27,704 nucleotides of DNA from a virus (IMGVR_UViG_3300044723_004817:1-27704), one strand, 5' to 3'; counted from the first letter of the stretch, positions 6,354-27,349 are shown. Numbers and translations are program-made. Notes: a model not told the origin generated them from the sequence alone.

Positions 6354-6361
6354 TATTTATC
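6354..6361 (-). promoter_or_regulatory. T4-type late promoter variant GATAAATA upstream of gp13
   Basis: 7/8 match to TATAAATA in the intergenic gap, 20 nt upstream of the gp13 start. Confidence 0.7.
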
Positions 6362-6363
6362 TA

Positions 6364-6975
6364 CTAACTTTCTTTGTGACTATGATCCATCACATGGGCT
6401 TTGAATGTATTAAGCACATTATGTTTGTTGTTCAACCAAGTAACTATAGCCTCTCTAGACCCATGAGTCACTAAAGTTGCTTCATGCTGCATAAAAGCTG
6501 GAAAAATTACAAAACTTCCTTTTTCTCGTTCACATCTACCAACTACGCTATCGCCGTCGTATATTAATAAATCTCCACCGTCATAATCTTCACTATCAGA
6601 CATATTAATAGACATTGTTAACACTCTAGTAACATCAACCGCTGGTACTACATCCTGGTGTTTTTTAAAAAAACCTCCTTCAGCATAATGTACATATTGA
6701 AAATGTGACAATGAACTGTAGTCTAAATGTTGATAAATAGACTTATAGTTCTCAATTATTAGAGATTGAAGAATTTGAGTAGTAACAGGGAATTTTGAAT
6801 AATCAACCATGTGTATTTGGCATTCGCGAATGTTGGGATCGTAATTACCACCTTTAGTTACGTCTCCGTTTGTGATTAAAGCATTGACTTTGTCACGACT
6901 GTACATCTCTATATCTTTCTTTAAAAGTTCAACCTCGCGAGTCGGTAAGACACCTTGACTTATAAACGTTTTCAT
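6364..6975 (-). CDS. 2OG-Fe(II) dioxygenase, prolyl-4-hydroxylase/PKHD-like
   Basis: Y-x-x-G-G-F-F-x-x-H-Q-D (HxD), LTMSINMS...DYDGGDL, FPAFMQHE (distal His), and GSREAIVTW (2OG-binding Arg). Confidence 0.92.
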   Translation of the reverse strand: MKTFISQGVLPTREVELLKKDIEMYSRDKVNALITNGDVTKGGNYDPNIRECQIHMVDYSKFPVTTQILQSLIIENYKSIYQHLDYSSLSHFQYVHYAEGGFFKKHQDVVPAVDVTRVLTMSINMSDSEDYDGGDLLIYDGDSVVGRCEREKGSFVIFPAFMQHEATLVTHGSREAIVTWLNNKHNVLNTFKAHVMDHSHKES

Positions 6976-7666
6976 GCAAAAAATAACCTTAGGTACAACA
7001 TACTATAACTGCCCGGATCTGCTAGAAAGGTTTTTAGAGAAGCATAGCAAATATGCAGATGAATTAATTGTAGTTGATGATGGATCTAAAAAACAAAACT
7101 GTATATCCAAGTACTCAGACGTCGATAATAATGTAAAACTGTATAAGGTACGTAAAGATATAGGATTTAACTCTCACGGTTGCAGAAATCTCATAGCTAG
7201 CGAGGCTTCAAACAACTGGATAGTTTTGATCGATATTGATCGAGAGTTTGATAATCCAGAATATACTTTCAACACTCTGTCCACTAGAAAACTAAAAGAA
7301 AACGTACGCTACTTATTTATTACGCATTATCGCAAATTATCCAATGATACTCACGCTTCTGTAAATGATTTTCTAATTCATCGTAATCATTATTTTAGTG
7401 TAGGTGGTTATGATGAGGAATTAGTAGGACAAAGATGGGGTGACAGAGAATTTTTAGATCAGCTTAAAGTCATGGGAGGAAAAGAATCTTTGTTATATGA
7501 TATTGATTTAATTGCAACTAGGAACGCAAGTTTGTTACCGAGAGTAAGACACAAGGTTGTTTGGAAAACTGCTGAACGCAGTCATTTTAAATTGATGGAA
7601 CAAAGAGCAAAGAAACCCGATCCAAATAAACCTATCCTACAATTCGAATGGGATCGACTGTTTTAA
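6974..7666 (+). CDS. GT-A fold glycosyltransferase (GT2 N-terminus with GT7/galactosyltransferase-like C-terminal motif)
   Basis: ELIVVDDGS, RNLIA, DID (DxD), and GGYDEELVGQRWGDREF resembling the GGFDE..GWGGED motif. It is the only credible + strand gene in the window. Confidence 0.88.
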   Translation: MQKITLGTTYYNCPDLLERFLEKHSKYADELIVVDDGSKKQNCISKYSDVDNNVKLYKVRKDIGFNSHGCRNLIASEASNNWIVLIDIDREFDNPEYTFNTLSTRKLKENVRYLFITHYRKLSNDTHASVNDFLIHRNHYFSVGGYDEELVGQRWGDREFLDQLKVMGGKESLLYDIDLIATRNASLLPRVRHKVVWKTAERSHFKLMEQRAKKPDPNKPILQFEWDRLF

Positions 7667-8651
7667 AATCTTTTAGAGAAAAACTTGTACCTTTCATCTT
7701 GTCTAGCATTACCATATCATTGTTCTTCCAAACAAGCACCTCGTTATCTTCATAAAGAAAATCACAATCTTTGCAGAAAGGTACCTCATCAAATCTTTGC
7801 TCAGCATGCATTTGCCTAAGCCACTTGTATCGATTACCGTTCCAAACCTGCTCTAAGGTTAGTTCTTTCATTGATCCTAAATCAGCGTCATCATCTCTAC
7901 CTAACGTCTGACAGCAGGGGGCTATGGACAGTGTGGTACCATTTGTACCACCTGCTCTTACAGTTAGGTCCGGTGAGAATGGTCTTCCACAACTTCGCTT
8001 TTCTCCTTGCCGCTTATAGTCAACCTCGTAAATACCAGACCAGTTATGCATCTTCCATATTTCAGCATAAGTGTCGGCGTGATTAATGAAATTAGCTCGG
8101 TATAGATTAACTTCTTCGTCTATGTTGTTGTTATCCAAAATTAAGTGGTAGGAGGCGACCTTACAGTCGGCGTTTTTCCACATAACATATTCTTTCATTG
8201 ACACAGCGTTTTCTCTAACATGGTCAAACGCATCTCTGTTCATCCATTTTTTATACGTCTGCTGATTGTATCCTATAACAGAAAACCTAGCTAAACTTAA
8301 ACCAGCATCTACACAGTTCATCATATACGTACCGTACAGATTGTATCCATTGGTGTAGATGAAGGCTTGAGCTCCGTGTTTCCTAACAATCTCAATATAC
8401 TTTGGTAAGTCTTTAGCCAACGTTGGCTCACCAGATCCTTCTAGGTTAACCACATTAAGACCAGCCTTAGCACACTCTGAAACCACATATTCAAAGTTTG
8501 CTAGGCTCATTTTCTTTAACCAATTTTTACCCCGGGCACCAGTAGATCCATTAGTATTGGTTTGAGGACACATTTCACACGTATAGTTACATCCTCCGTT
8601 AACTTCAATTACGGCTCTATCAATACTTAAAGGTATACTATAATCAACCAT
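7632..8651 (-). CDS. Radical SAM enzyme with a C-terminal SPASM/Twitch auxiliary Fe-S domain
   Basis: CNYTCEMC (CxxxCxxC), GSGEPTL, YTNG; C-terminal CGRPF...IAPCC...LGS...LEQVWNG...CKDC. Confidence 0.93.
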   Translation of the reverse strand: MVDYSIPLSIDRAVIEVNGGCNYTCEMCPQTNTNGSTGARGKNWLKKMSLANFEYVVSECAKAGLNVVNLEGSGEPTLAKDLPKYIEIVRKHGAQAFIYTNGYNLYGTYMMNCVDAGLSLARFSVIGYNQQTYKKWMNRDAFDHVRENAVSMKEYVMWKNADCKVASYHLILDNNNIDEEVNLYRANFINHADTYAEIWKMHNWSGIYEVDYKRQGEKRSCGRPFSPDLTVRAGGTNGTTLSIAPCCQTLGRDDDADLGSMKELTLEQVWNGNRYKWLRQMHAEQRFDEVPFCKDCDFLYEDNEVLVWKNNDMVMLDKMKGTSFSLKDFKTVDPIRIVG

Positions 8652-9423
8652 TGGGTTTGTTATACAAACTATGCATTGTTGGGTTACTGTAAGTATCTAA
8701 CCAAGCCTCAAGCTCGTTATTATATCTAATGCAACGAGCTTTGGATTCATTTACATATACTTCAACACCCTTTTTAAAAAGGTTATCAACATTATGTTCA
8801 AGTGATGCTGTTGGCACTAAAAGACGGTTTAAATTGTGTCTTTTACACATTACAATTAATGGTTTCCACATATATTTAAATAATTGATGGACCATACCAT
8901 CATAACCAATACCAAATCTACATTGTCTGATACAATCCAATACCTCACATATTGGAGTACGGTAAGTAACCTCCTTCACAGTGTAGCCATTATGCTGTAG
9001 ATAACTAATCACACTATCCCATCTATCATGAGCCGGATCTTTTTTTTCGCCAGGAAAATATGTGTTGTACTTGGATCGCCACAATACAACCATGTTAGTG
9101 TTGGTTGTATCTAAATTGGTATACCACAGTCCGTGGAGAGGATTAAATTCATCTAGGTTGTTAACAAATCGGTATGGAAAGTTACTGTTAACTTTATACG
9201 ATACTTCAACGTTGTCTAATTTGCGCATCGTGCTGTACACGTATTGCATCCGGTCTATAATAGTTTCCGGATCTTCAATAGATTCTTTATAATCTTCAGA
9301 ATGATTCCAATGAAAGGTAATATGAGTAGGTGTTTTGTATTTAAGTGAAGACGTATGAGCATAGCCTAAACCCGTGACAAAGTCTCCATAACCAAAACCA
9401 CAACGCCAATGTATGTCAAGCAT
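8644..9423 (-). CDS. Putative GT-B fold glycosyltransferase-like protein (GT9-like)
   Basis: N-terminal GFGYGDFV and C-terminal IRQCRFGIGYDGMVHQL...KPLIV, resembling the GT9 GIGD and F-I-G-x-D-S-G-x-x-H-L-A motifs. Confidence 0.55.
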   Translation of the reverse strand: MLDIHWRCGFGYGDFVTGLGYAHTSSLKYKTPTHITFHWNHSEDYKESIEDPETIIDRMQYVYSTMRKLDNVEVSYKVNSNFPYRFVNNLDEFNPLHGLWYTNLDTTNTNMVVLWRSKYNTYFPGEKKDPAHDRWDSVISYLQHNGYTVKEVTYRTPICEVLDCIRQCRFGIGYDGMVHQLFKYMWKPLIVMCKRHNLNRLLVPTASLEHNVDNLFKKGVEVYVNESKARCIRYNNELEAWLDTYSNPTMHSLYNKPNG

Positions 9424-10106
9424 TAATCTTTAGGGCCAATTGCATCCAAATCAAAAGGTATTTCATCTGCACATTCTTCTATTAACGTCTTCCAAACTGT
9501 CTTATTAGGCACAATAAAACCAAGAGTTATTCTTGGATTTTTAGTATAAGCAGTGTGCCAAAACAAATCATCATGATCCTTTTCAAGCGAAGAATAATAT
9601 CCAAATCTGAAGTTCCAACCAGGATTATCATTTAAAGTAGTAAATGTGTCTGTACGTTTATCATAGTATCTAAAATAGCCCTCACCGTCTATACTGTACG
9701 TTAAAAGAAAATTAAAACCATGCGCATTTCCATTATGATGCCACCCAATATAACCATTATTAGGATAAAAATTACATAATGCGTTCATATGTGAACCAAT
9801 GTAACTCATTAAAGGTCTAATTAACGGCGATGCCAATTCATGCCAATAGCTACCGCCTTTCCTAACAGCATAGACGGTATCTAATCCATACCCAGCTTTG
9901 GGAACATTGTAGTCTGTCACCGGATACTCTAACGCTCTATAGAGATAATCATCGCTATAAGGCAAGCAATCAGTAATATTTTTATCTGTATCTCTAATTG
10001 CTCTTTTAGATAATTTATCGACTACCTCTGGATCTTCAAATACAGTTTTAGTTATATTGGATAGATGCTTTAGAAGTGTAGTGTTTGTCATCAAAAGCTG
10101 GTTCAT
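9423..10106 (-). CDS. Divergent 2OG-Fe(II) oxygenase-like (double-stranded beta-helix) protein; start probably ATG 10106 (track gives 10112)
   Basis: FYPNNGYIGWHHN (H-x-N), LFWHTA (distal His) and PRITLGF (Arg) in the usual order. AAGGA Shine-Dalgarno upstream of 10106. Confidence 0.6.
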   Translation of the reverse strand: MNQLLMTNTTLLKHLSNITKTVFEDPEVVDKLSKRAIRDTDKNITDCLPYSDDYLYRALEYPVTDYNVPKAGYGLDTVYAVRKGGSYWHELASPLIRPLMSYIGSHMNALCNFYPNNGYIGWHHNGNAHGFNFLLTYSIDGEGYFRYYDKRTDTFTTLNDNPGWNFRFGYYSSLEKDHDDLFWHTAYTKNPRITLGFIVPNKTVWKTLIEECADEIPFDLDAIGPKD

Positions 10107-10848
10107 TTGCACAATTCCTTTCTATTTGTTCCCATACTTTAAAATTCTTGTAAATAGCCCTTGGCACTTGTAATACTACAGGTGGTTTATCAGTACCGTG
10201 GTTACTACCATCGACCATAGTACAGTTAAATCTTCTATCTCCCAGCTTAACAGCTCCAGTAAACTTTTCAAAACCTGGAATAACTCCCGAATATAGTTTC
10301 CAATGAGTGAACATATCCCACTCTCTCCATATATCAGAGTATTGCTTATATGGCCATGGTGAGCTCCATTGCTTGACATATTCACTCCACCATGTCTCCA
10401 TAAACTCTAAATTGTAGTCAGTTTTTTTGTACCATGCTACAGCACCGTTAAAAAGAGGATAATGACCATTATCCTCATCTATGTAATACAAGTCAGGAGT
10501 GCTTATAGTGTGATGCATATTCTCTGCCATCCATATATGATCATCAAGGTCATTAAACACGTCTTTTATATCTGGATGTATAATTAGGGAATCAACGTCG
10601 TTATAAAAAGTTTGGTCATATGGAGTACGAGCCATGCACCACATTTTGGCTCTGCGATGAATTGGTATACCCGTCACGACGTTATCAAAAACCTGCTCCG
10701 CCCGGTCATCAACATAACATTCGTGGGTAAACAAAGTAACATTAGCTTCTGGATAAACGTCTTTAAGAGATTTAGCTGATTCAATGCCCATCTCATAATA
10801 CATTTTCTTTTTTGAAGCGACGTAAATAAAGCCACTATTCATTGACAA
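10048..10848 (-). CDS. Putative GT-A fold nucleotide-sugar transferase (GT8-like)
   Basis: GFIYVAS...SAKSLKDVYPEANVTLFT, AKMW...TPYDQTFYNDVDS (DxD), FNGAVAWY and WDMF motifs. Confidence 0.75.
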   Translation of the reverse strand: MSMNSGFIYVASKKKMYYEMGIESAKSLKDVYPEANVTLFTHECYVDDRAEQVFDNVVTGIPIHRRAKMWCMARTPYDQTFYNDVDSLIIHPDIKDVFNDLDDHIWMAENMHHTISTPDLYYIDEDNGHYPLFNGAVAWYKKTDYNLEFMETWWSEYVKQWSSPWPYKQYSDIWREWDMFTHWKLYSGVIPGFEKFTGAVKLGDRRFNCTMVDGSNHGTDKPPVVLQVPRAIYKNFKVWEQIERNCANEPAFDDKHYTSKASIQYN

Positions 10849-11331
10849 TTACGTCTCCTGGTGTTCTGTTTCTTCCACGTAGTCTAGATAATCACAATAA
10901 TCCAGGTTTTTAGAAGACAAGTAAGTTCTAAAATAATCCGAAGCTATCATATGTAGAGTCATTTCATCAGGACATCGTCTGACAGATGACTTAACTTCTG
11001 AAGGTGCTTCTTTTATAAATTGAAGTTCAAACATAGCACTTTTAATATCAAACAATCGAGTTAATCGCCTTATTTCTTGTTCTTTTAATTTATCTTCCTC
11101 AACTCTTTCTTTACGAGCATTGTGCTCTTTAAGGGCACTTTGATAAGCCGCCTTAATATCAGTTAATGGATAATTTTGGCAGATCCAATCAAAGTATTCG
11201 TTTACACCCGATGCCTCCCCTTCTGGTACCGTAAAATCAATTTCTACAGTAGTACCATCCTTTTTTACTCCTCTGCATCTCATAGTTTCGGGATTCAGAA
11301 ACACAGGGTTTATCAATTTCTCATATCGCAT
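10849..11331 (-). CDS. Hypothetical protein with a central charged coiled-coil; possibly an assembly or chaperone partner of the upstream protein
   Basis: 160-aa ORF tightly packed in the operon, with an AAGGA Shine-Dalgarno. No motif recognised. Confidence 0.7.
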   Translation of the reverse strand: MRYEKLINPVFLNPETMRCRGVKKDGTTVEIDFTVPEGEASGVNEYFDWICQNYPLTDIKAAYQSALKEHNARKERVEEDKLKEQEIRRLTRLFDIKSAMFELQFIKEAPSEVKSSVRRCPDEMTLHMIASDYFRTYLSSKNLDYCDYLDYVEETEHQET

Positions 11332-11340
11332 AATAATTCC

Positions 11341-12882
11341 TTAACCAATTCGTCTCCATAGTGTTATTGTAGATATAGTAGATGTGCCAGAATCCACGGT
11401 AGGCACAGAACCTGTATATGAAGCGCTGCCTATATAATTTGCAACGCCAGTATAGTTAGCAACATTAGTAAAACCCTGTGGGCCATAAAAGGTGCCTGGA
11501 CCAGCAAAGCCAGCGGCCCCATAGTAAGCTGCTGAGCCATAATAGGTACCTGGGCCGTAATAGGTGGCAGGTGCGGTTCCATAATAAGTAACGAAACCTG
11601 TATATGCAGCCATACCGTAGTAAGCAGTCGTGCCAGTAAACACTACTTCCTGCACGCCTGCATAACCCGCCGTGCCAACAAATGTGGCGGGGCCAACGTA
11701 ACCAAACGGGCCATAAAAATATACGGTACCAAGATATTGACTTGAATAATAACCTCTCGCCCATCCACCAAAATAGCCCGCATAAAAATATCCACCGTAA
11801 AAATATTGTGAATTCGCGAAACCGACTGTTCCGGCGTAGCTGGCTACACCATAATAATTTGCGGGACCATAAAAAGTGGCCGGGGTAGGGCCTATATAGG
11901 ATATCGGACCATAGTAGGTAGCAGGACCATAGTAAGGAACAGGACCCGTAGAAGACGTAGGTGTAAATCCATAGTAAGCAGTTGGGGCGTAACTAACAGT
12001 TCCGCCGATATAGGTGGCTGGCCCATAATAAGTATTCGTGCCATAAAAAGCAGCTGTGCCAGTATAAGTTATTGGACCTACATAATCGAATGGGCCGACA
12101 TACGTAGCTGGGCCAGTAAATCCAGTTGGTACGCCAACTACATCTCTACGAGTGTCGACTACAGAACCAACGTTGGTCCAAGTACCGGTTACAGGAACTG
12201 AAGCTTGGAATTGATATGTACCTATTTCAGTTGTTACTATTCGTTCCCTCACAATCTCTGAAATTGTGTCTATTTCTGTGTTAGACATTAACTGCAAGGT
12301 CCCTTGAGATTGTTGCTTCAACGGCCGTTGAGTCATCGTAGTGTCGTTAGCTATTTTTTCATATAAGCTATATGTTGTCCCATTAGTGGGATCAATTTGA
12401 TCATTAAAAGTATGAATTATAGCCCAAGTACCTCCATACGTTCCAGCTGGAGAAGAAGTATCAATTCTATATGCGCCAGGTGCGTCGTTATCAACCATAT
12501 GGGCAACGATATCATCCGCTAAAGCGTGCATTTCCGTGTTAGAGATTTTTCTAAGACTTGTTGATGAATTATCCCAGGTAAATGGTCTATCTGAAAACGT
12601 TCCATAATTAGAAGTTAAATCTTGATACAACGTGGTAGTATAGGTTGTAATTGAAGTATCTGTTGATCCTACAGCCTCTGTCCTCGTATCATCTATAGTA
12701 CCAATTGAGGTATAGTTAGCGTTAGCGCCTGCCGTGTTAGCAAACAAGTTTCCGGGTCCATCAGACACAGCAAACTTTTCAAGAATTTTATCAGCTAGTG
12801 CTGTAAATTCTGTATTGGAAATCATTTGAAGCATGCCACCAGATGGGATAGCTTTAAATGTTAATATATTTGGTCTAGCCAT
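11341..12882 (-). CDS. Putative virion appendage/tip protein: three-repeat base domain plus a Tyr/Gly-rich hexapeptide-repeat insertion
   Basis: Three RP...L..[IM]SNTE repeats and about 240 aa of [YF]-x-G-x-x-x units. Located directly after the fibre genes. Confidence 0.7.
   Translation of the reverse strand: MARPNILTFKAIPSGGMLQMISNTEFTALADKILEKFAVSDGPGNLFANTAGANANYTSIGTIDDTRTEAVGSTDTSITTYTTTLYQDLTSNYGTFSDRPFTWDNSSTSLRKISNTEMHALADDIVAHMVDNDAPGAYRIDTSSPAGTYGGTWAIIHTFNDQIDPTNGTTYSLYEKIANDTTMTQRPLKQQSQGTLQLMSNTEIDTISEIVRERIVTTEIGTYQFQASVPVTGTWTNVGSVVDTRRDVVGVPTGFTGPATYVGPFDYVGPITYTGTAAFYGTNTYYGPATYIGGTVSYAPTAYYGFTPTSSTGPVPYYGPATYYGPISYIGPTPATFYGPANYYGVASYAGTVGFANSQYFYGGYFYAGYFGGWARGYYSSQYLGTVYFYGPFGYVGPATFVGTAGYAGVQEVVFTGTTAYYGMAAYTGFVTYYGTAPATYYGPGTYYGSAAYYGAAGFAGPGTFYGPQGFTNVANYTGVANYIGSASYTGSVPTVDSGTSTISTITLWRRIG
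11401..12120 (-). repeat. Coding repeat of about 35 degenerate [YF]-x-G-x-x-x units (about 18-nt period)
   Basis: FTGPAT YVGPFD YVGPIT YTGTAA FYGTNT YYGPAT ... YYGPGT YYGSAA YYGAAG FAGPGT FYGPQG ... YIGSAS YTGSVP. Confidence 0.95.
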
Positions 12883-12884
12883 TA

Positions 12885-13211
12885 TTAACTACCCCATACA
12901 ACATTATTTGCTTCATCGCGAATAGTTAGCGTTCGGTTTGAACTGTCTTGCAACGTAGTAACGATAGCGGTAGTTACAGTAATCGTATTAGCAGTAATAT
13001 TGTTACCAGAGAGAGTAGTGCCGCCCCCGGTTACTGATAATGTTCCAGATATAGTAACTGAGTTGCTAAAAGTTTGAGTCCCTGCAAAAACATTGTTACC
13101 GGAGGTACTCGCTGCATCTCTCAAAGTTTTATTAGTAACAACTCGCCACGTATTGAAAGAGTCTGATAACTCTACATTAGCAACAGGAGAGCCAGAAAAT
13201 ACTATTGTCAT
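12885..13211 (-). CDS. Short fibre-like virion protein, a miniature paralogue of 13215..15242
   Basis: N-terminal ANVELSDSFNTWRVVTN and C-terminal DSSNRTLTIRDEANNVVWGS, both matching the neighbouring gene. Confidence 0.75.
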   Translation of the reverse strand: MTIVFSGSPVANVELSDSFNTWRVVTNKTLRDAASTSGNNVFAGTQTFSNSVTISGTLSVTGGGTTLSGNNITANTITVTTAIVTTLQDSSNRTLTIRDEANNVVWGS

Positions 13212-13214
13212 ACC

Positions 13215-15242
13215 TTAGCCTCCCCACACAATGTTGTTAGCTTCATCACGTATAGTAAGTTGTCTATTAGAGCTATCTAATAACGTTCTTGTTTTTATAG
13301 AATCTACGAACATTGCGTTAGCTGATTCATCATAGTTAAATCCTGAATCTATAATTATCCTACCATTCATGGCTGCATGCGCACTACAATTATAATGCAG
13401 CACCGCAGGTGCATGATTTGGAACCTGGAAAGTAACCAAACCTACTTCCGCTCCATTATTTGTTACACCGTCGTTGTAAGCATTTCCTGTGCCAGTAGAA
13501 TTTATAGTTTTAATATAAAATGGATGGCCGGACGCATTTACGTTAAATTTATAAACCTTTCCTCTTGATAGCAATAAGGTGGGATTATTGTTTGTTGATG
13601 TACCACCACCGTTAAACTGATAAGCACTAACTCCATCGTTTACCACATTAAACACTGTAGCGGTACTGTTTGCGGACAGTGTCTCTGTACCCGGATTAAA
13701 TGTAAATTGGGCATCTACATTAGCGGATGTCATTGTACCACTGCTAATTCCAGTAAACGGAACAAATAACTCTCGGTTAGCTCCTCCATCTGTGGCCACT
13801 GAGGATCCAGCATTTGTTAAATTACTACCATCCCCAGAGAAAGCTGTTGCTGAAAGAGTACCGGTCGATGGATTAAACGTGAAATTTGAATTCACATTGG
13901 CACTCGTCATTGTGCCAGAAGATACACCGGTAAATGGTACAAACAAGTCGTGGTTAGCTGAGTCTGTGGCTACTGTTGAACCAGCATTGGTTAACTGACT
14001 ACCATCACCGATAAACGTGTTTGCTTGCACAGTTCCCAGTTCAAATGAAGTATGAGCAGTATTAATATTACCTTGTACTTCTGGATCATATGACTGGAAA
14101 AACTTGAACCGCTCATCAGTAACATCAAAGAATACACCCACGTGAGTGTACCCACCAGCTGCTTGTCCAGTGTTTCTGTTTGACGCCCACCCTGTATCAA
14201 CGTTAAGAGGAGCGGCTCCTCCGGTCCAAATATCTCCAGCTGTATGACCAGTGTTGGCCACAAACAGAGCACTAATACCCCATCTCAACGATTGCTGAGA
14301 AGCGGTAATAGCAACGTTAGCTGCTTCTGTAGTTGAGAAATTGTCTAACGACCAAGAGAAGGTATCTGGATTACCGGGATTGGTATTGTCGATCTTTACA
14401 TAAAAAGTTACAGTATTACCACCGTTGTAATGACCTTTAAAAGTAAAGTCATTGAGACCTGTTACGGCAGTTGAATTTGCTGTGAGTGTATCACCACCGT
14501 TTAGATAAACAAACGAATCATCAATAGATAAGTTGGTTAACGTCGTGACGGTTTCTCCACCTAGAACATTAAGGTTTCCATCTACATCTAAATTACCACC
14601 TATATGGGCGTTGTTAATGACACGGAAGGATGGTACCGAGTGGTTTTGCTGTTCTATTACAACTATACCGTTAGCAGAATCTGACACAACACAAAGTCCA
14701 ACACACATCGGGTAGTTTGGATATGTCGGTGGTGTAGTAACCAGCTGACCGTTTGCAGATGCACTTACAAAGAATCTTTCGCCTTGAGTGAGACTAGATG
14801 TATCTAATCCTCTCAAAGTACCAGATACTGCAGCCCAACCATAAGAACTGTTCCCAATCGAACTTGCAGCTAGTCCTGAAATGTTGTACTTGCTAGCGTT
14901 TGAAGCGTTAGCTAATTGTGCATTTGGAACACCACCTGTTGAACCACTTAGAAACAACGGTTGACCAAGATTGATTTGAACACCACTGTTATTGTATACT
15001 CGGATATACTCATTCTGGCCAAGCTCCATTTCAAGGCCACCCTCACTGAATACAGTCAGAGATTTATGAGTATTATCGAAGTACGTTCGACCTTCTTGAG
15101 CAGCAAGACTGGCATGTGTTGCCCCCTCGAAGTCTAGAAACTTAGGGGTGCTGTTAGAGGACCTTTCAATAATTTGATTGGTACGATTCAGCCACGTAGA
15201 AAACGTGTCTGTACTTACTACATTTGCTAAATTAAGTGCCAT
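13215..15242 (-). CDS. Multi-domain fibre/virion structural protein
   Basis: N-terminal DTFSTWLNRTN motif, a cement/decoration-like domain (RVYNNSG...INLGQPLFL...GQLVTTPP), beta-shaft segments (IGGNLDVDGNLNVLG), two GDGS repeats, a cupredoxin-like module, and C-terminal IRDEANNIVWGG. Confidence 0.8.
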   Translation of the reverse strand: MALNLANVVSTDTFSTWLNRTNQIIERSSNSTPKFLDFEGATHASLAAQEGRTYFDNTHKSLTVFSEGGLEMELGQNEYIRVYNNSGVQINLGQPLFLSGSTGGVPNAQLANASNASKYNISGLAASSIGNSSYGWAAVSGTLRGLDTSSLTQGERFFVSASANGQLVTTPPTYPNYPMCVGLCVVSDSANGIVVIEQQNHSVPSFRVINNAHIGGNLDVDGNLNVLGGETVTTLTNLSIDDSFVYLNGGDTLTANSTAVTGLNDFTFKGHYNGGNTVTFYVKIDNTNPGNPDTFSWSLDNFSTTEAANVAITASQQSLRWGISALFVANTGHTAGDIWTGGAAPLNVDTGWASNRNTGQAAGGYTHVGVFFDVTDERFKFFQSYDPEVQGNINTAHTSFELGTVQANTFIGDGSQLTNAGSTVATDSANHDLFVPFTGVSSGTMTSANVNSNFTFNPSTGTLSATAFSGDGSNLTNAGSSVATDGGANRELFVPFTGISSGTMTSANVDAQFTFNPGTETLSANSTATVFNVVNDGVSAYQFNGGGTSTNNNPTLLLSRGKVYKFNVNASGHPFYIKTINSTGTGNAYNDGVTNNGAEVGLVTFQVPNHAPAVLHYNCSAHAAMNGRIIIDSGFNYDESANAMFVDSIKTRTLLDSSNRQLTIRDEANNIVWGG
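13665..14015 (-). repeat. Tandem duplication of a 58-59 aa fibre module
   Basis: FIGDGSQLTNAGSTVATD-SANHDLFVPFTGVSSGTMTSANVNSNFTFNPSTGTLSA versus FSGDGSNLTNAGSSVATDGGANRELFVPFTGISSGTMTSANVDAQFTFNPGTETLSA; units start at 14015 and 13841. Confidence 0.93.
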
Positions 15243-15257
15243 TATACGCCTCTAAAA

Positions 15258-15467
15258 TTACTTCGACACCAACTGTTGTAAAAGCTGCTTAATGTCTTGG
15301 ATATCGTCTTGAAGGTCTGAAACTTTTTGCTCTACAAGGTCGATCCTTTGAGCCTTCTTTTGTTTTATTAAATAAGCCTCGTATCCCTGCCTATCGGTAT
15401 TAACAATAGCCTTACTATGACGATCACGAATTAAATCTTTATGATCTTTTACCTTGATACTATTCAT
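15258..15467 (-). CDS. Small coiled-coil hypothetical protein
   Basis: IKVKDHKDLIRD..SKAIVN followed by the heptad pattern VSDLQDDIQDIKQLLQQL. Coupled to the upstream stop through a TAATG overlap. Confidence 0.8.
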   Translation of the reverse strand: MNSIKVKDHKDLIRDRHSKAIVNTDRQGYEAYLIKQKKAQRIDLVEQKVSDLQDDIQDIKQLLQQLVSK

Positions 15468-18400
15468 TATGCTAACGCTATTGCTCTAAAGTTACGGAAT
15501 GTAGGTACAGCTGCAGATGATGTCGAGTACATCACAATCTTAATGCTAAACGTAGTAAAGTTATCATAGGTAACAGAACCGCTAGTATATGAAATATCAT
15601 CTGCATAATATTCGTACTCATTAAACAATGAAACCGACTGATTGACCGTAATACTCGGTTGTCGTCTAGTCATTAAGACATATGGTCTTTCTTCAAAATT
15701 AATATCATCCTCACTATTTATAACTCGGTAATAAACTTCAACCGATGCACCCGAAGGCATGTTTTGATCTACGAAGACTTTAAGGCTGGTAGCTTCTAGA
15801 CCTTCTGCTAGAGTAACCTTTCTTGTAATATATTTTGCAAGCGCATGGCTGTCTGTAGCTTCTGTTTCAGCAACCTCTCCACCAGTAGGAGGTGCGTTAA
15901 TTACATTTTTAATCAAGGAAATTCCTGCAGAACCGACATCAAAGTATGGTGAAACATTGGTATCACTAGTTCTAAAGGTAACCTTTAATTGAAGATCATT
16001 ATTAGTTGTGATCTCCTTCGAAGTGCTAAAGATCAGATCTTGATTTGGTATCACCTTCTCAAAGGGCTGTACTGCTCCCCCGTCATTTTTAGTAGACAGC
16101 TCATACACAGAATTCAAACTTCGTAACGCGTCAAATTTAGACATTGATATGTTAGCTATATCAAACTTACCAACTGTATTGGCATATAATGTATTAGCAT
16201 TGTATGCTGCGCGTCCAATATTATTAGCTGACAGAGTTACACTGTAGTTAGTATTAATAGTAAACTGAGCTTGCTTCAACCTGAAGCACAAATCAGATTC
16301 TTGTTGGGCAGTCCAAGTTCTTGCGTTCTGAGACTTAAACAAAGAACCCAGTGTAGGTTGCTCGGTAACAAACCCAGTACCATCTAACCTCTCTTCACCT
16401 ATTGTTGAAATGTATGTGAGGTAGTTGAGCGAGTCCGTCAGCAGCACGATACAATATTCACCCGGAGGCAAATGTATAGGACACTTGAATGCAACGTTAG
16501 TGGCCGTTGGAGTAGTGGCGTTAGCATTGATCTGACTCGGATTCAAGGAAACTTGAGACATAGGAATGGCTTCGTCAGCGCTTGGGAAACCATTTACCGT
16601 AGGACGTAGTTCTACACGCAAAGGTAAACTATTGTCCTTTTGTGCTATAAAGATATCTGCAGAACTTATAAAAATACCATCAGGATAAAATTCCTCTGGT
16701 ATAGTAAAGGTTTGCGCAAGGGGGTCGTAACCGTATTCACAGACAATGTTAGGGTTGCTTCCATCACCATGCACTGCTGAAGCTCCACGGTTAACAGTTG
16801 CCGCCGTTACAATAGCTGCACCCAATGCAACAGGACTCTCGAATTGACCATTAATATATTCAGTAAGCCAATAATTCCAACCTGCTACTTCTGGTCGTCT
16901 TCCAATCCTTTGCTCGTATTGAGCAGTGATGAAATCTGCTGTGGATAGTTCATCAGCTGTAAGTGATCTACCTATAGTTGCTTCGATGTCCCCAATAGCA
17001 CTGGCTTTAGTATCGTTGGTAGTAAGGAAATATCCATTTTCTACTTTTGAAGTCTGAACAAATCCTGCTGGTGCTCTTAACAACTCATAACGCTTAGTCA
17101 TTGTTGTAGTGGTGGTATAGGTGTCTAACTTACCTCTAGAACTGAACGTGGTAGAAGCGTAAGAAGTTGAAAACTGAGGATTAATAAAGTTATCAACAAA
17201 CAAGACTTCTATAGTACCAGCTTCGAATCTAAGACTATCACCCTTAGAATTTGATAGATCAGGCAGCACCGTAGCATTTGGATTTGCAGAATAAGCAGAA
17301 GCACTTAAAACTTGCCTTGTATTAGGAACCCAAAAATAACCACTTGCTGAGCCAAAGCTGTCTGTGATTATCTCACGGTTTGTAATGTCACTGTACAAGA
17401 CTTGTTCGGCCCTAGTTGAGCTGAAAGTATTTGGCGCCATCCACTGAGTACAATCAATACCTCCTAACAAGAGGTGTAGTTTAGTATTAGGTCTAGCTCC
17501 CTCAATCGTAAAGTTAACTTTACGGGTTCGCATGTAAGGGTAAAAAACACTTTCTGTAAGTCTAGTGCTGGTTGAAGTGTCTGTTTCAACCTGTACAGAT
17601 AATTTAGTTGCACTAATTTGTCCAGTAGTGGTAATTTGAGATGCCCAAACTCCAGGACCATCTACCGCAGTTGGATCGTTAGTACCTGCATACGAGCCTT
17701 CTACTTTTACAATTTCTGCTGGACCCTGACTTGTTTGTTGCCAGTCTCCATACTCATATCCATTACTACCTTTTACAAAGTCCTGAAGATATGTCAGGTG
17801 ATCGAGGTTACCATCTGAGTTAACCAACACACTTACATTCTTATTATCGGTCCAGGAGTCTGATGATGGATCCAAGAATACGTTGCCGGTAAAAGATACA
17901 ACTTGAAACGGATTTACATTTAAAGTATCAGAAGCCAACTCTTGAGAAACAAAATTTATTTCAGAGAATGGAAGTGTAGCAATCTTATTGTTTATAGTAA
18001 GACCGCTACCAGCTTGTGGAACCAACTCAGTTGAATCACCAGTAAAGGTAGGACGCATAACCTGTCGACGTCTATCAATAGATGCCTTATAGTTCTTATC
18101 GAAAACATTACCTACTGAGTGACCTTTAAATGGATCAACTATAAAACCGTTCTTATATCTGGCATCTCCATTGTCATCAAGAAACTGGGTACTAGCAACT
18201 TGAGATTCAAGTAAATTCAAAGAAGTATAATACTCAAGTTTCTCTACTCTCTTTTCAATATTACCAATGTCCTTCATTGTGTATCGAGAATTGTCTTCTA
18301 GCTTTATCCTCAAATCCTTTTCGTTGTACGTATAAGGATTTACATAGATAGTTGCCAGGAGCATTTGATCTTTATCAACTTCTGGAATTATAGGATTGTT

Positions 18401-21073
18401 TAAAGATGGAGTTCCGGAGGTCAGAATAAAATTGCCTACCGAGTCCAAAGAGAGCTTGTGTACTATTTTCTTATAGTAGCTATAATCAGCCTCTGCTTCA
18501 AAAGTTTGAGAGTCAACAATTTGATGGTTGTCGAAGGCTTTTGTAGAGTGATAATAATTAGCACTCGCGTCAGCTGTTCTAGTAGGTCTGAAATCCAAAG
18601 CGTCTCTTAGAGCAACCGTACGTCCTTTTTCATCCCTGTAATATGGGATGTTATTATAGTCGGGATAGCTTGCCTGTGAAAAGTAACCTAAACCACCGCC
18701 ATGCGCATAGTAATCAAAGTCTACTAGAATTTGGTTTGTGCTTGCAGACAGACCAGGTTTCAGTGTAATGGTCGAATGATCATAGTATGCATCACGAGCA
18801 TTACGGTTAAAATTAAAGTTGTTAGTGACATCTTGTATGGTCGTATTAGTACTATTGTTAGCTGGAATAATTTGACCTGTGTTAGAAGATACAAAAGTTG
18901 AGTTACCTTCATAGATCGCATTAATTTTTATTACATCGGCGTACCCAAGAGAAAGAGAATTCGCTGAAGTTGGATATCCAAGTGCATACGTTTTGGTTGC
19001 ATTGGTTCTAGTTTTTACTCGTCTAGTGTCGGCTGTAACATCTATTGTGGCATATATGTCAGCAGTACCATTAAACGAAGCTTCATTTACATCAATTATA
19101 GCTGACGCTGGGTTGCCTGGTGTAGGTGTTGGTATTGTGACAGATCGACCAGCTGCTTCCAAGTCAACGTTTTTATTGTTTGATATAGTGCCTGCCCCGC
19201 CAGTTTTTACTACTACGATAAAGTTTTCAGTAGCCAGGCTACCTGCACCAGAGGAGAATCTCTCTGAACCCCCTAAAGTCTGAATTGTAACAGATCCACC
19301 AGTAAACGAAACATCAGAAAACTTTCGCTTAAACTTGTAATCGACGTTACTTGTGTTTGCTACATGGGTGTGTGGGAACAGAAACAGACTTCTGTTAAAT
19401 TGTTTGTCTGACAAATTAACACTAGTAAAATTAAGAATGTTGTTCGCATTGGTTACAGTTGCGTTTCGACTTAAAGTAACTGTATCAAACAGAATAGAGC
19501 TCACAGTGGTGTTAGCAAGGATACCTGGACCGCTAACTACTTGCCCTACTTGTACTCCACCGATACTAGTTAACCTTACTGAGGTTTTACCTGCGGTGGT
19601 TCCACCTGTCTTGTTAAACGAAGTGATGCTATCAGAGTGAACTGCAGCATAGGCGTTATTACTTGAATGCGTACCTAACGTAATGCTTTTTACAGAATTA
19701 AAGTTCTTCTCACTGTTAGTAATTCGAACATCGTACAGAAACAACTTATACTTTCTCTGATCACTGGTGCCGGATAGGTACTCAATATTTCTTACATGAG
19801 CTTCACCAATCTTTGAATCAGCATCTGGAGTTACTCTAGCATGTAGTTCTACCCTATCATCTATGTCCATCAATCCGTTGGACAGCGTATTGGCTATTAA
19901 GTAGTTTCCATACAGTGTAGTAATTTTTTGTTCAGCAACAGTATCGAGCGCTCGGGACTTAGGAATAGCAACGTCAATATTAGAACCCGTTCTGACTCTG
20001 TATCCCTTAACATAAGCAGTTCCTGGTGAAAATCTTGCCACCAGGTTAGCAGTCGTAGCCGCAGTATTAGCTACTGATAGATTAAGGCCCTCGACCGTAT
20101 AGTTTCCAGACTCTTCGTAAGTTCGCTTTGCCAATACATCTGCAAGTGTGTTATAATCTGGAGACGGACGTTTACGGATAAACTGTCCGTTCTTTACCCT
20201 AGCTACTTCAAAATAGTTATTTGAAGTTAACGGTGGTACATCAAGAGATGAAAGTGGTTTGGCAGTAACTGTAAGTTCTACCTTTAATCTGTCTGCTCCA
20301 GGAGCAGCATAGTTGTAGCTACCCCTTGCAGGATCTGTTAATGTACTATCATCATCACTAGTAACTAAGGTTTCTGTAGATGTGAATCCAATACTTACAA
20401 TATGTTCTATGTTTGCTGCAACTGCTGCAGTCTGCTTTGGAGCCCTAATAAACAGGCCTTTGTGGTAATAAACCGACTCATCTACCGAATACAAGAAACC
20501 TCTAGTTACTGGTCTTTTAGCAACAGTACTTTCTGCTGTAGATAAAACTTGAGCTGTGCCTGTGTTTGAAAAGAATAGACCAGTATTACTATTAATGTAC
20601 GATGAGCTAAAATCTATAATGTCGTTATTAGAAACAATAGAATAGTAGATAGAAGAATTGGATGTAGTATTAGCACTCTGTAAATATTGAACGTAAATTA
20701 AGTCGTTGTCACCGCCTGCAGCAGGCACAGCCTTTTTAACGTAAAATAAATCTTGTGAATTACGGCTCCTAGCATACTTTCCTTCAAAACTAGAGACGTC
20801 GATAGCGACACCGCCATACGTCGACTTTAATCTAAAAACACCTACTTGGTCGAGTACCTCCGATGAACCACTAACCTGCGAACCATCTTTAAAAATATGA
20901 TTACCAAAACGATGAATTTGGTTTTGTAAGATTGTCTGCTGTTGTGTTAGCTCTCTAGCCTGTACGGCAAATCCAGGACGATACAAAATACGATGAAAGT
21001 TTTTAGTTTCATCGTAATCATCGTAGTATGGATCTACGTTGAAGTTAGTTACTAGGTTGTTGTTAGCAGTCAT
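15467..21073 (-). CDS. Large virion structural protein, DUF4815/VrlC-like
   Basis: N-terminus FNVDPYYDDY...ILYRPGFAVQARELTQQQTILQNQI, plus APGADRLK, RTYEESGNY, RYTMKDIG..EKRVEKLEYYTSL, DPLAQTF and GSLFKSQNARTW motifs seen in this T4-like family. Confidence 0.88.
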   Translation of the reverse strand: MTANNNLVTNFNVDPYYDDYDETKNFHRILYRPGFAVQARELTQQQTILQNQIHRFGNHIFKDGSQVSGSSEVLDQVGVFRLKSTYGGVAIDVSSFEGKYARSRNSQDLFYVKKAVPAAGGDNDLIYVQYLQSANTTSNSSIYYSIVSNNDIIDFSSSYINSNTGLFFSNTGTAQVLSTAESTVAKRPVTRGFLYSVDESVYYHKGLFIRAPKQTAAVAANIEHIVSIGFTSTETLVTSDDDSTLTDPARGSYNYAAPGADRLKVELTVTAKPLSSLDVPPLTSNNYFEVARVKNGQFIRKRPSPDYNTLADVLAKRTYEESGNYTVEGLNLSVANTAATTANLVARFSPGTAYVKGYRVRTGSNIDVAIPKSRALDTVAEQKITTLYGNYLIANTLSNGLMDIDDRVELHARVTPDADSKIGEAHVRNIEYLSGTSDQRKYKLFLYDVRITNSEKNFNSVKSITLGTHSSNNAYAAVHSDSITSFNKTGGTTAGKTSVRLTSIGGVQVGQVVSGPGILANTTVSSILFDTVTLSRNATVTNANNILNFTSVNLSDKQFNRSLFLFPHTHVANTSNVDYKFKRKFSDVSFTGGSVTIQTLGGSERFSSGAGSLATENFIVVVKTGGAGTISNNKNVDLEAAGRSVTIPTPTPGNPASAIIDVNEASFNGTADIYATIDVTADTRRVKTRTNATKTYALGYPTSANSLSLGYADVIKINAIYEGNSTFVSSNTGQIIPANNSTNTTIQDVTNNFNFNRNARDAYYDHSTITLKPGLSASTNQILVDFDYYAHGGGLGYFSQASYPDYNNIPYYRDEKGRTVALRDALDFRPTRTADASANYYHSTKAFDNHQIVDSQTFEAEADYSYYKKIVHKLSLDSVGNFILTSGTPSLNNPIIPEVDKDQMLLATIYVNPYTYNEKDLRIKLEDNSRYTMKDIGNIEKRVEKLEYYTSLNLLESQVASTQFLDDNGDARYKNGFIVDPFKGHSVGNVFDKNYKASIDRRRQVMRPTFTGDSTELVPQAGSGLTINNKIATLPFSEINFVSQELASDTLNVNPFQVVSFTGNVFLDPSSDSWTDNKNVSVLVNSDGNLDHLTYLQDFVKGSNGYEYGDWQQTSQGPAEIVKVEGSYAGTNDPTAVDGPGVWASQITTTGQISATKLSVQVETDTSTSTRLTESVFYPYMRTRKVNFTIEGARPNTKLHLLLGGIDCTQWMAPNTFSSTRAEQVLYSDITNREIITDSFGSASGYFWVPNTRQVLSASAYSANPNATVLPDLSNSKGDSLRFEAGTIEVLFVDNFINPQFSTSYASTTFSSRGKLDTYTTTTTMTKRYELLRAPAGFVQTSKVENGYFLTTNDTKASAIGDIEATIGRSLTADELSTADFITAQYEQRIGRRPEVAGWNYWLTEYINGQFESPVALGAAIVTAATVNRGASAVHGDGSNPNIVCEYGYDPLAQTFTIPEEFYPDGIFISSADIFIAQKDNSLPLRVELRPTVNGFPSADEAIPMSQVSLNPSQINANATTPTATNVAFKCPIHLPPGEYCIVLLTDSLNYLTYISTIGEERLDGTGFVTEQPTLGSLFKSQNARTWTAQQESDLCFRLKQAQFTINTNYSVTLSANNIGRAAYNANTLYANTVGKFDIANISMSKFDALRSLNSVYELSTKNDGGAVQPFEKVIPNQDLIFSTSKEITTNNDLQLKVTFRTSDTNVSPYFDVGSAGISLIKNVINAPPTGGEVAETEATDSHALAKYITRKVTLAEGLEATSLKVFVDQNMPSGASVEVYYRVINSEDDINFEERPYVLMTRRQPSITVNQSVSLFNEYEYYADDISYTSGSVTYDNFTTFSIKIVMYSTSSAAVPTFRNFRAIALA

Positions 21074-21088
21074 ATCTGTTTCTCTTTA

Positions 21089-22624: not shown

Positions 22625-22626
22625 CG

Positions 22627-27172: not shown

Positions 27173-27349
27173 TTATTTATCGCTGTTCTTAGCAGCTTGT
27201 ATCTCTAGACGTAAAAGTTTACACAACTTTGCAATTTCACTAAGTGATTTACGTGCTCTAGTGCCTGCTGCCTTATTACCACTCTCAAACTTTTCATACT
27301 CTGCTGTGAGAGTAGCAACGTGATTGTCCAACATATCTTTAGTGCTCAT
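27173..27349 (-). CDS. Small Hc1-like (histone H1-like family N-terminal domain) protein, 58 aa
   Basis: Absent from the track, whose shortest listed ORFs are 60 aa. Manual translation: MSTKDMLDNHVATLTAEYEKFESGNKAAGTRARKSLSEIAKLCKLLRLEIQAAKNSDK. AGGAGA Shine-Dalgarno at 27355-27360; the GNKAAGTRARK signature resembles Hc1-family proteins. Confidence 0.85.
   Translation of the reverse strand: MSTKDMLDNHVATLTAEYEKFESGNKAAGTRARKSLSEIAKLCKLLRLEIQAAKNSDK
27174..27181 (-). promoter_or_regulatory. T4-type late promoter variant GATAAATA upstream of gp25, overlapping the Hc1-like stop codon
   Basis: 7/8 match to TATAAATA, 30 nt upstream of the gp25 ATG, followed by an A-rich leader. Confidence 0.7.

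Follow-up and report, generated by a model that had tools for sequence, protein, structure and literature searches.

A conserved fibre-plus-enzymes module in uncultured marine T4-like phages and its possible role in maturing a repeat-protein appendage

The viral contig IMGVR_UViG_3300044723_004817 carries, at positions 6364-15242, ten genes set among the structural genes of a T4-like phage. The window, by which we mean the whole 27.7-kb IMG/VR contig, is estimated to represent ~16% of a genome, a size that limits any judgement on the absence of sugar-nucleotide genes. What emerges is a conserved fibre-plus-enzymes module whose core consists of a fibre-like repeat protein (REP), a helper of 160 residues (u160), a GT-A-type nucleotide-sugar transferase-like protein (u266) and a protein with the 2-oxoglutarate (2OG) oxygenase fold and a His-x-Asn (HxN) site (u229). 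The core is not the set of six enzymes emphasised in an earlier note, which had read the region as a candidate system for building and chemically modifying a virion appendage from two fibre paralogues, a repeat protein, one protein of no known family and six enzymes; all ten of these genes were found in the place it gave. No description of the four-gene core was found in the literature searched, although the supplementary protein clusters of PMC7029224, which were not examined, might list its families.

The four-gene block

Three sets of loci were drawn from relatives of the window: 80 loci of 315 relatives selected with the radical S-adenosylmethionine (SAM) enzyme, 80 of 256 selected with the u229 profile, and 79 of 140 selected with a REP profile from another clade. 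Open reading frames (ORFs) were called in the loci and searched with jackhmmer profiles of each window protein, and lineages were defined as 90% clusters, with at least 2.5 kb of downstream sequence for REP-selected lineages and at least four upstream ORFs for u229-selected ones. All 37 REP-selected lineages had u160, u266 and u229, three of the 37 u266 genes having been missed by the ORF caller and found by tblastn alone (73-74% identity). The 42 u229-selected lineages included 40 with u266, 40 with u160 and 39 with the N-terminal domain of REP; two exceptions, L093 and L098, were lone u229 paralogues in a replication region. These counts show that REP, u160, u266 and u229 almost always occur together as a block of four genes in uncultured marine T4-like phages. 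Within the structural operon the block belongs to the tail-fibre part, downstream of the gene for a VrlC-like baseplate protein, and its usual upstream neighbours encode VrlC-like (~2000 residues), 69-residue and ~160-residue proteins.

The co-occurrence of enzymes and repeat protein that the earlier note had put forward as a test was therefore borne out for the core (37/37 and ~40/42 lineages), but not for the GT9-like protein (u259), the radical SAM enzyme, the GT2 glycosyltransferase and the prolyl 4-hydroxylase (P4H)-type oxygenase, which follow the block in the window's clade only (12 loci). Two of the six enzymes, u266 and u229, are thus part of the core, whereas the other four are accessory. 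The genes that follow u229 in other clades form different sets encoding proteins of 200-290 residues, mostly on the reverse strand, and include a different radical SAM protein, a sulfotransferase-like protein, methyltransferases and a weak GT8 match. Such clade-changing enzyme sets fit variable tailoring of one conserved acceptor.

Searches with u266 and u229 found matches only in Phage C48C1 (OQ984149.1), plus one uncultured 595-kb record for u229. C48C1 is the only deposited genome found with the block, which there comprises a REP-like protein and, after it, three "hypothetical proteins". Neither megablast of the region nor tblastn of REP found a match among 50,697 phage records, a result in which the low-complexity filter may hide REP.

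REP (513 residues; 11341..12882, minus strand) was delineated by family alignments and repeat analysis. A conserved N-terminal domain of ~240 residues with three internal repeats is followed, in the window protein, by ~35 xxx[Y/F]xG units and a C-terminal TLWRRIG motif; across the family the C-terminal end is conserved as T-x-S-T-x-x-L-W-[RVL]-R-[IT]-[AG], and the number of repeat units in relatives ranges from 14 to 282. The repeat described in the earlier note is real: the lag-6 autocorrelation of the window protein was 0.41 for aromatic residues and 0.40 for Gly, values reached by 0 of 5000 shuffles, and there were 36 [YFW]xG motifs against ~12 expected. The window's unit is a hexapeptide, for example GPATYY; that of the largest clade is nearer to G-x-Y-[T/S]. 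The aromatic position, counted over all units of the family, holds Tyr in 65%, Phe in 32% and Trp in 2% (the Gly that follows it is fixed by the definition of the unit), Thr and Ser are frequent at three of the positions, and the highest share of Pro at any position is 9%. Only in the window's clade does Pro make up 4-10% of the repeat region. As read from these alignments, Tyr is not universally required at the aromatic site and Ser or Thr is always available. Because Phe occupies 32% of aromatic positions, Tyr cannot be the general target of modification, and since Pro is common in the window's clade only, the hydroxylation of Pro or Tyr suggested by the earlier note cannot be the chemistry of the family as a whole. 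REP matched no Pfam, PHROG or NCBIfam family, and 21 clusters of REP homologues were without any Pfam domain.

The REP-like protein of C48C1 has 3347 residues (OQ984149.1 141011-151054; L237:5012-15055), with several globular insertions amid runs of GNY/GNF repeats and a stretch of ~80 residues that is duplicated almost exactly.

The gene for u160 (10849..11331, minus strand) always lay directly after REP in the loci compared. The family alignment revealed a small N-terminal domain followed by long charged helices, and there was no Pfam, PHROG or NCBIfam match; u160 may be an assembly chaperone or adaptor for REP. Single-sequence and small-profile searches of the PDB with u266, u229, u259, REP and u160 gave nothing significant.

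In the u266 family (266 residues in the window; 10048..10848, minus strand), residues D84 and D86 of a DxD motif were invariant in 24 sequences, and this region aligned with the DxD of glycogenin. Glycogenin is a GT8 enzyme that glucosylates its own tyrosine. The profile of the 24 sequences found glycogenin-1 as its best match in the PDB (E 0.0018), making the glycogenins the best solved sequence relatives of the family, with the nucleotide-binding region and the DxD aligned. The likeness is weak and partial, however, and Phe stands for Tyr in a third of REP units. None of the 24 members matched Pfam GT8 (PF01501) at E<=1, while weak Pfam matches were to GT2 (8/24) and Nucleotid_trans (5/24). 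The description of u266 as GT8-like is supported only in part, by the DxD and the glycogenin match but not by Pfam, and as far as the evidence goes u266 appears to be a GT-A transferase that is weakly GT8-like. Its gene overlaps that of u229 by ~59 nucleotides, an overlap that recurs in relatives.

The u229 gene (229 residues; 9423..10112, minus strand, with a probable ATG start at 10106) was assigned from its predicted fold and its invariant residues. The predicted model had a confidence (pLDDT) of 91.6, and all 50 matches listed for it by VIA were 2OG oxygenases or cupins, as befits a double-stranded beta-helix fold. The top matches among those listed were PHD (6f0w, Z 9.2 over 143 residues, root-mean-square deviation 4.1) and Tpa1 (Z 9.1); the leading group as a whole, at Z 9.2-8, comprised PHD, Tpa1 and OGFOD1-type prolyl hydroxylases together with AlkB homologues, and the viral collagen prolyl 4-hydroxylase vCPH (PDB 5c5t) was also present (Z 8.4). 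In 63 diverse relatives (21-57% identical) the only invariant residues were Y116, W124, H125, N127, D162, W166, H186 and R194. An hhalign comparison with the window's P4H family, which was weak (E 0.029, probability 1.7), placed H125-x-N127 on H-x-D, H186 on the distal His and R194 on the 2OG-binding Arg. The 2-His-1-carboxylate facial triad is thus incomplete, with Asn127 in place of Asp or Glu, and u229 had no Pfam, PHROG or NCBIfam match that would place it in the 2OG-Fe(II) superfamily by sequence profile. Since H125, N127, H186 and R194 are invariant in the 63 relatives, the term "H-x-N oxygenase-like" used in the earlier note is apt, and the Asn is a hallmark of the family.

The u229 family numbers 736 representatives at 50% identity with E<=0.001, or 304 at E<=1e-10. 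A scan of one genome from each of 185,579 prokaryote species produced a single match, a lone paralogue on a 142-kb contig, and the family is essentially confined to viruses. Lone u229 paralogues away from any fibre gene were seen in L093, L098, L243 and C48C1, the last (OQ984149.1 40130-40804) lying between a replicative helicase gene and a NifU-like Fe-S assembly gene; the u229 fold therefore has a second, fibre-independent use.

Accessory enzymes of the window's clade

The protein encoded directly after u229, u259 (259 residues; 8644..9423, minus strand), was predicted to have a compact GT-B fold (AlphaFold pLDDT 95.8; 31 relatives aligned). The four best full-length structural matches of the model were all GT9 enzymes: WaaC (Z 11.1, 191 residues), TibC (Z 10.7, 193 residues), WaaF (Z 10.5) and 3tov (Z 9.9). 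Foldseek ranked TibC first (E 6.7e-4), and the Atlas lists a viral GT9 cluster for u259 at 0.95. In sequence searches u259 had no match to Pfam PF01075 at E<=10, none to any Pfam, PHROG or NCBIfam family, and none in a profile search of PDB sequences. The predicted structure, with GT9 enzymes nearest to it, nonetheless supports the earlier assignment of u259 as GT9-like. TibC glycosylates a repeat-rich adhesin. The GT-B fold of u259 resembles that of TibC, from the TibC/TibA system, and of related autotransporter heptosyltransferases (PDB 4rap, 4rb4), but u259 is only 16% identical in sequence and ~120 residues shorter. The fold does not tell the type of acceptor because the lipopolysaccharide (LPS) enzymes WaaC and WaaF score the same as TibC.

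The radical SAM enzyme (339 residues; 7632..8651, minus strand) was identified as such in the earlier note, and both Pfam models supported this above their cut-offs (Radical_SAM 43.1 bits against 29.5; SPASM 34.4 bits against 21.5). The cysteines of the CxxxCxxC motif (C21, C25 and C28) were invariant, as were five in the C-terminal part (221, 246, 247, 293 and 296). These five fall short of the full seven-Cys SPASM motif with its two auxiliary clusters, and would fit one auxiliary cluster in a Twitch-like or abridged SPASM domain. The best solved sequence relatives were BtrN (PDB 4m7s, E 1.6e-5), a Twitch-type radical SAM dehydrogenase, and more weakly DesII (E 0.04). BtrN and the window enzyme share a short N-terminus and probably a single auxiliary cluster, although their alignment covers the radical SAM core alone (residues 14-145). 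As CxxxCxxC starts at residue 21, there is no room for an N-terminal peptide-recognition domain, and no NCBIfam maturase model came near its cut-off. Not all maturases of ribosomally synthesized and post-translationally modified peptides (RiPPs) have a RiPP recognition element. The short N-terminus, the five cysteines, the BtrN and DesII relatives and the occurrence in sugar islands described below favour a sugar over a peptide, and the enzyme probably acts on the former.

At 52-58% identity the radical SAM enzyme, usually with a u259 homologue just upstream, occurs in ~64 further loci that have no fibre gene within 10 kb. Two of these loci were annotated and have NAD-dependent epimerase/dehydratases, UDP-glucose dehydrogenase, a HAD-nucleotidyltransferase, GT8, GT25 and an FkbM methyltransferase nearby; both islands adjoin RNase H and ribonucleotide reductase. 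Because four of five long records with such an island also hold u160, u266 and u229 elsewhere in the record, the pair is mobile within genomes that carry the core block.

The GT2-family glycosyltransferase (230 residues; 6974..7666) is encoded on the plus strand. It matched PF10111 Glyco_tranf_2_2 (46.7 bits against a cut-off of 27.3, E 3.8e-12) and PF00535 Glycos_transf_2 (32.2 bits against 23.3), so that of the "GT2/GT7-like" label it had been given, GT2 was the part that Pfam supported. The gene overlaps the start of the P4H gene by 2 nucleotides and the end of the radical SAM gene by 35, and 12 of the 13 related loci with a GT2 match also have it in this reversed orientation, L018 being the exception. 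An antisense gene overlapping both neighbours implies either a promoter of its own inside the P4H gene or regulation by convergent transcription.

The P4H-type 2OG-Fe(II) oxygenase (203 residues; 6364..6975, minus strand) matched PF13640 2OG-FeII_Oxy_3 (50.6 bits against a cut-off of 27, E 4e-13), and H106, D108, H164 and R174, which make up the metal triad and the 2OG-binding Arg, were invariant in 12 orthologues, in agreement with its earlier identification. REPs with at least 4% Pro in their repeats were all in the window's clade, and most loci of that clade with enough flanking sequence have the P4H gene. Of the two that do not, L020 has the radical SAM gene and 0% Pro; the other, L015, is taken up below. 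These observations fit a P4H that would act on the Pro-containing version of the REP repeat. Two virus-encoded enzymes, the collagen prolyl 4-hydroxylase of PBCV-1 (vCPH) and L230 of mimivirus, are paired with Pro-containing repeat proteins. The window resembles these systems in having a virus 2OG oxygenase beside a Pro-containing repeat protein, and differs in that u229 has HxN for HxD, that hydroxyproline in REP is a prediction, and that Gly recurs in REP at every 6th or 4th residue and not, as in collagen, at every 3rd. A close relative, L005, encodes ahead of its own REP block a 621-residue collagen-like (Gly-Asn-Pro)n protein (L005:1383-3245), two genes upstream of two extra P4H paralogues, which speaks for a more general pairing of such oxygenases with Pro-rich fibre proteins.

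Possible roles of the module

Based on these data, we give an even chance to our favoured reading, that the region is a fibre-maturation and glycosylation module for a REP appendage with clade-specific tailoring. REP would form an appendage of the virion, longer or shorter according to how many [Y/F]xG units it contains, and u160 would help its assembly as a chaperone-like helper. u266 would start the glycan by attaching a sugar to a Ser, Thr or Tyr residue in the repeats, and u229 would either hydroxylate the repeats or recognise them. In the window's clade a second sugar would be added and edited by u259 and the BtrN-like radical SAM enzyme working together, GT2 would lengthen the glycan, and P4H would act as hydroxylase of the Gly-Pro-rich repeats found there. 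Donor sugars would be supplied by the host or by a sugar island at another place in the genome.

The favoured reading is supported by the near-obligate adjacency of REP, u160, u266 and u229, by the invariant catalytic-type residues of u266 and u229, by the recurrence of the u266/u229 overlap, by the tie of the u259 fold between WaaC and TibC, and by the solubility of all the proteins, none of the enzymes having a membrane-spanning segment. It is also supported by the positions of late-promoter-like motifs before gp25, gp13 and gp18. The motif used in the scan was that of T4 late promoters. One copy, ATAAATA (27174..27180, minus strand), lies ~30 nucleotides upstream of gp25 and would start a unit running through the enzymes; a second, GATAAATA (6354..6360, minus strand), lies ~20 nucleotides upstream of gp13 in a 29-nucleotide gap, the only sizeable one, and would start the next unit; and a third lies ~32 nucleotides upstream of gp18. 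Promoter and terminator scans found no intergenic copy of the motif and no convincing terminator within the block, and the minus-strand genes from gp25 to P4H are for this reason probably one late unit. The earlier view that the set sits inside a late-type structural transcription unit is supported by both observations.

A further precedent is phage-encoded virion glycosylation, which is established in mycobacteriophages (Freeman 2023, as cited in PMC12619734). There, as proposed here, phage glycosyltransferases encoded beside structural genes act on the phage's own virion proteins, and we count this in favour of the glycosylation reading. The mycobacteriophage targets differ in being C-terminal extensions of capsid and tail-tube subunits with demonstrated glycans (PMC12619734), whereas the window module, known from its genes alone, offers a candidate repeat-fibre target and extra oxygenase-like and radical SAM enzymes. 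The earlier proposal that the G-P-A-T/Y-Y-G repeats are the substrate of the enzymes therefore stands in part: REP is tied to the helper, the GT-A protein and the HxN protein, but only two of the six enzymes belong to the core.

Several results weigh against the favoured reading. Both the presence of REP in the virion and its modification are predictions made from genes. The carboxylate ligand of active 2OG oxygenases is missing from u229, which may for that reason not be an oxygenase. u266 reached no curated family threshold in Pfam, PHROG or NCBIfam, and its match to glycogenin spans the N-terminal, nucleotide-binding half only. Counts of TATAAATA/ATAAATA in the whole window were not above chance, so that the positions of the three motifs are suggestive and their counts alone are not. 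The radical SAM/u259 pair occurs in sugar-nucleotide islands at ~64 loci away from fibre genes, contrary to the expectation that homologues of the enzymes would not be found independently of REP. What links P4H to Pro comes essentially from a single clade, within which L015 has 4% Pro and no P4H in its flank. Enzymes of this kind, finally, have a published reading in a similar position, as follows.

The main rival explanation, which we consider unlikely, though deserving of attention, is that the enzymes remodel a host surface glycan (LPS O-chain or capsule), blocking superinfection or altering recognition, and sit among fibres in a hypervariable cluster. In pelagimyophages a hypervariable "host recognition cluster" between VrlC and gp14 holds tail fibres, glycosyltransferases, of which GT8 are the commonest, and radical SAM cassettes, and modification of the host O-chain has been proposed for its enzymes (Zaragoza-Solas et al. 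2020, PMC7029224). The window has a variable island of this type, with fibres and glycosyltransferases between the VrlC-like gene and the neck genes, and the same mix with radical SAM; the part of PMC7029224 available to us mentions no block of repeat protein, helper, GT-A and HxN proteins. A similar reading applies to cyanophage S-SCSM2R, in which a radical SAM gene lies among glycosyltransferases and sugar aminotransferases (PMC12801897). The epimerase/dehydratases, UDP-glucose dehydrogenase, GT8, GT25 and FkbM methyltransferase around the radical SAM/u259 pair, and the tie of u259 with the heptosyltransferases WaaC and WaaF, point the same way. Host-glycan remodelling leaves unexplained, however, why u266 and u229 are almost always adjacent to REP and u160, and no membrane-bound transferase, flippase or polymerase is encoded in the window. 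Expression together with the baseplate and fibre genes, which is probably late, would also leave little time for altering the surface of a cell near lysis, and u229, with its single match in 185,579 prokaryote species, is virus-restricted.

It is improbable, in our judgement, that u266 and u229 (and u160) are non-catalytic assembly factors or minor fibre parts that keep enzyme folds, and that only the accessory genes encode true enzymes, whose targets would be unrelated. Fibre genes are typically followed by genes for assembly chaperones. The HxN site of u229 without its acidic metal ligand and the failure of u266 to pass any curated glycosyltransferase threshold are in keeping with such a role, as is one Atlas cluster structurally like u229 that bears Pfam Phage_tail_APC (TM 0.67, a lead only). 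Against this, the invariant DxD of u266 and the invariant His, Asn, His and 2OG-type Arg of u229 resemble the conservation of active sites, and u229 also occurs as lone paralogues away from fibre genes.

That the radical SAM enzyme cross-links aromatic residues of the repeats in the manner of a RiPP maturase (cyclophane-forming or PqqE-type), as the earlier note had allowed, is very improbable. The enzyme does have a SPASM-type domain, REP does have repeated aromatic-x-Gly motifs, and the two genes lie within 3 kb of each other, but the protein has no N-terminal recognition extension ahead of residue 21 and only five invariant C-terminal cysteines, and the substrates of its best solved relatives are an aminocyclitol for BtrN and a sugar for DesII. 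It is moreover missing from most REP-bearing clades and present in the ~64 loci with no REP within 10 kb. Least credible of all is modification of phage DNA bases, as in the glucosylation of T4 hydroxymethylcytosine, since, although phage glycosyltransferases and 2OG oxygenases are known DNA modifiers (PMC12619734, PMC7029224), these genes belong to a structural operon and go with REP rather than with replication genes, and no base-hydroxymethylase was found in the window, itself only ~16% of a genome.

A stronger form of the glycosylation reading, which we advance tentatively and hold to be somewhat doubtful as a whole, is that abundant ocean T4-like phages have a length-variable [Tyr/Phe]-x-Gly appendage matured by a virus-only pair, a glycogenin-like transferase and an HxN relative of 2OG oxygenases, and then tailored by clade with enzymes that include a sugar-acting radical SAM protein and a prolyl hydroxylase. 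If this is true, phages would have their own equivalent of collagen or extensin maturation, and the viral P4H genes of marine viromes, whose use "remains cryptic" (PMC9301287), would gain a substrate. In marine viromes few "auxiliary" genes are more common than those for glycosyltransferases, radical SAM enzymes and prolyl hydroxylases, and for these the REP block offers a concrete, testable acceptor as an alternative to the usual host LPS. Glycosylation of the fibre would bear on host range, particle stickiness, and grazing or immune recognition of ocean phages. The block also defines three protein families without a Pfam, PHROG or NCBIfam model, and the invariant His-x-Asn site of u229 would be of interest to enzymologists.

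Flanking genes and fibre paralogues

The large terminase of the window shares ~60% identity with its counterparts in Methylophilales phage Melnitz and in cyanomyoviruses, which all belong to Kyanoviridae, and nearly all window genes are on the minus strand. PHROG matches identified gp25-, gp6-, gp7- and gp8-like baseplate wedge proteins in one flank, and in the other gp13- and gp14-like head-tail adaptor/head closure proteins, a gp15-type sheath stabiliser, TerS, TerL and the gp18 tail sheath. In the direction of transcription, the genes between gp8 and gp13 encode an 1868-residue DUF4815 protein, a 69-residue protein, the 675- and 108-residue fibre proteins, REP, u160, u266, u229, u259, the radical SAM enzyme, GT2 (opposite strand) and the P4H-type oxygenase. 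The placement of the set between gp8 and gp13 in the earlier note was correct as to the flanks, but the DUF4815 and 69-residue proteins precede the fibres there. The close packing of the genes was likewise confirmed, with spacings of -59 to +9 nucleotides within 6364-15242, and as a correction GT2 runs opposite to all its neighbours.

The 675-residue fibre protein (13215..15242, minus strand) matched PHROG 677, baseplate wedge tail fibre connector. Its pairing with the 108-residue short fibre (12885..13211, minus strand) as paralogues was confirmed by N- and C-terminal motifs that the two have in common (35 residues, 63% identity, E 2e-11). The shorter protein resembles a minimal version of the longer, with which it shares the F-x-T-W motif at the N-terminus and the final 35 residues, and relatives have one to three short "fib" genes ahead of REP.

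The 69-residue virion structural protein (15258..15467, minus strand; PHROG 473) is a conserved upstream neighbour of the block, and the VrlC-like DUF4815 baseplate protein (15467..21073, minus strand) marks the start of the "host recognition cluster". The latter contains a DUF4214-like motif, and a stretch judged by eye to be similar is inserted in the repeat region of a REP homologue, P0009. Another contig, L002, corresponds to positions 10000-24870 of the window with 100% protein identity for VrlC, the 69-residue protein, both fibres, REP, u160 and u266, while immediately upstream of VrlC its gp8 and gp7 are 75% and 81% identical, a drop suggesting that the edge of the fibre module coincides with a recombination boundary.

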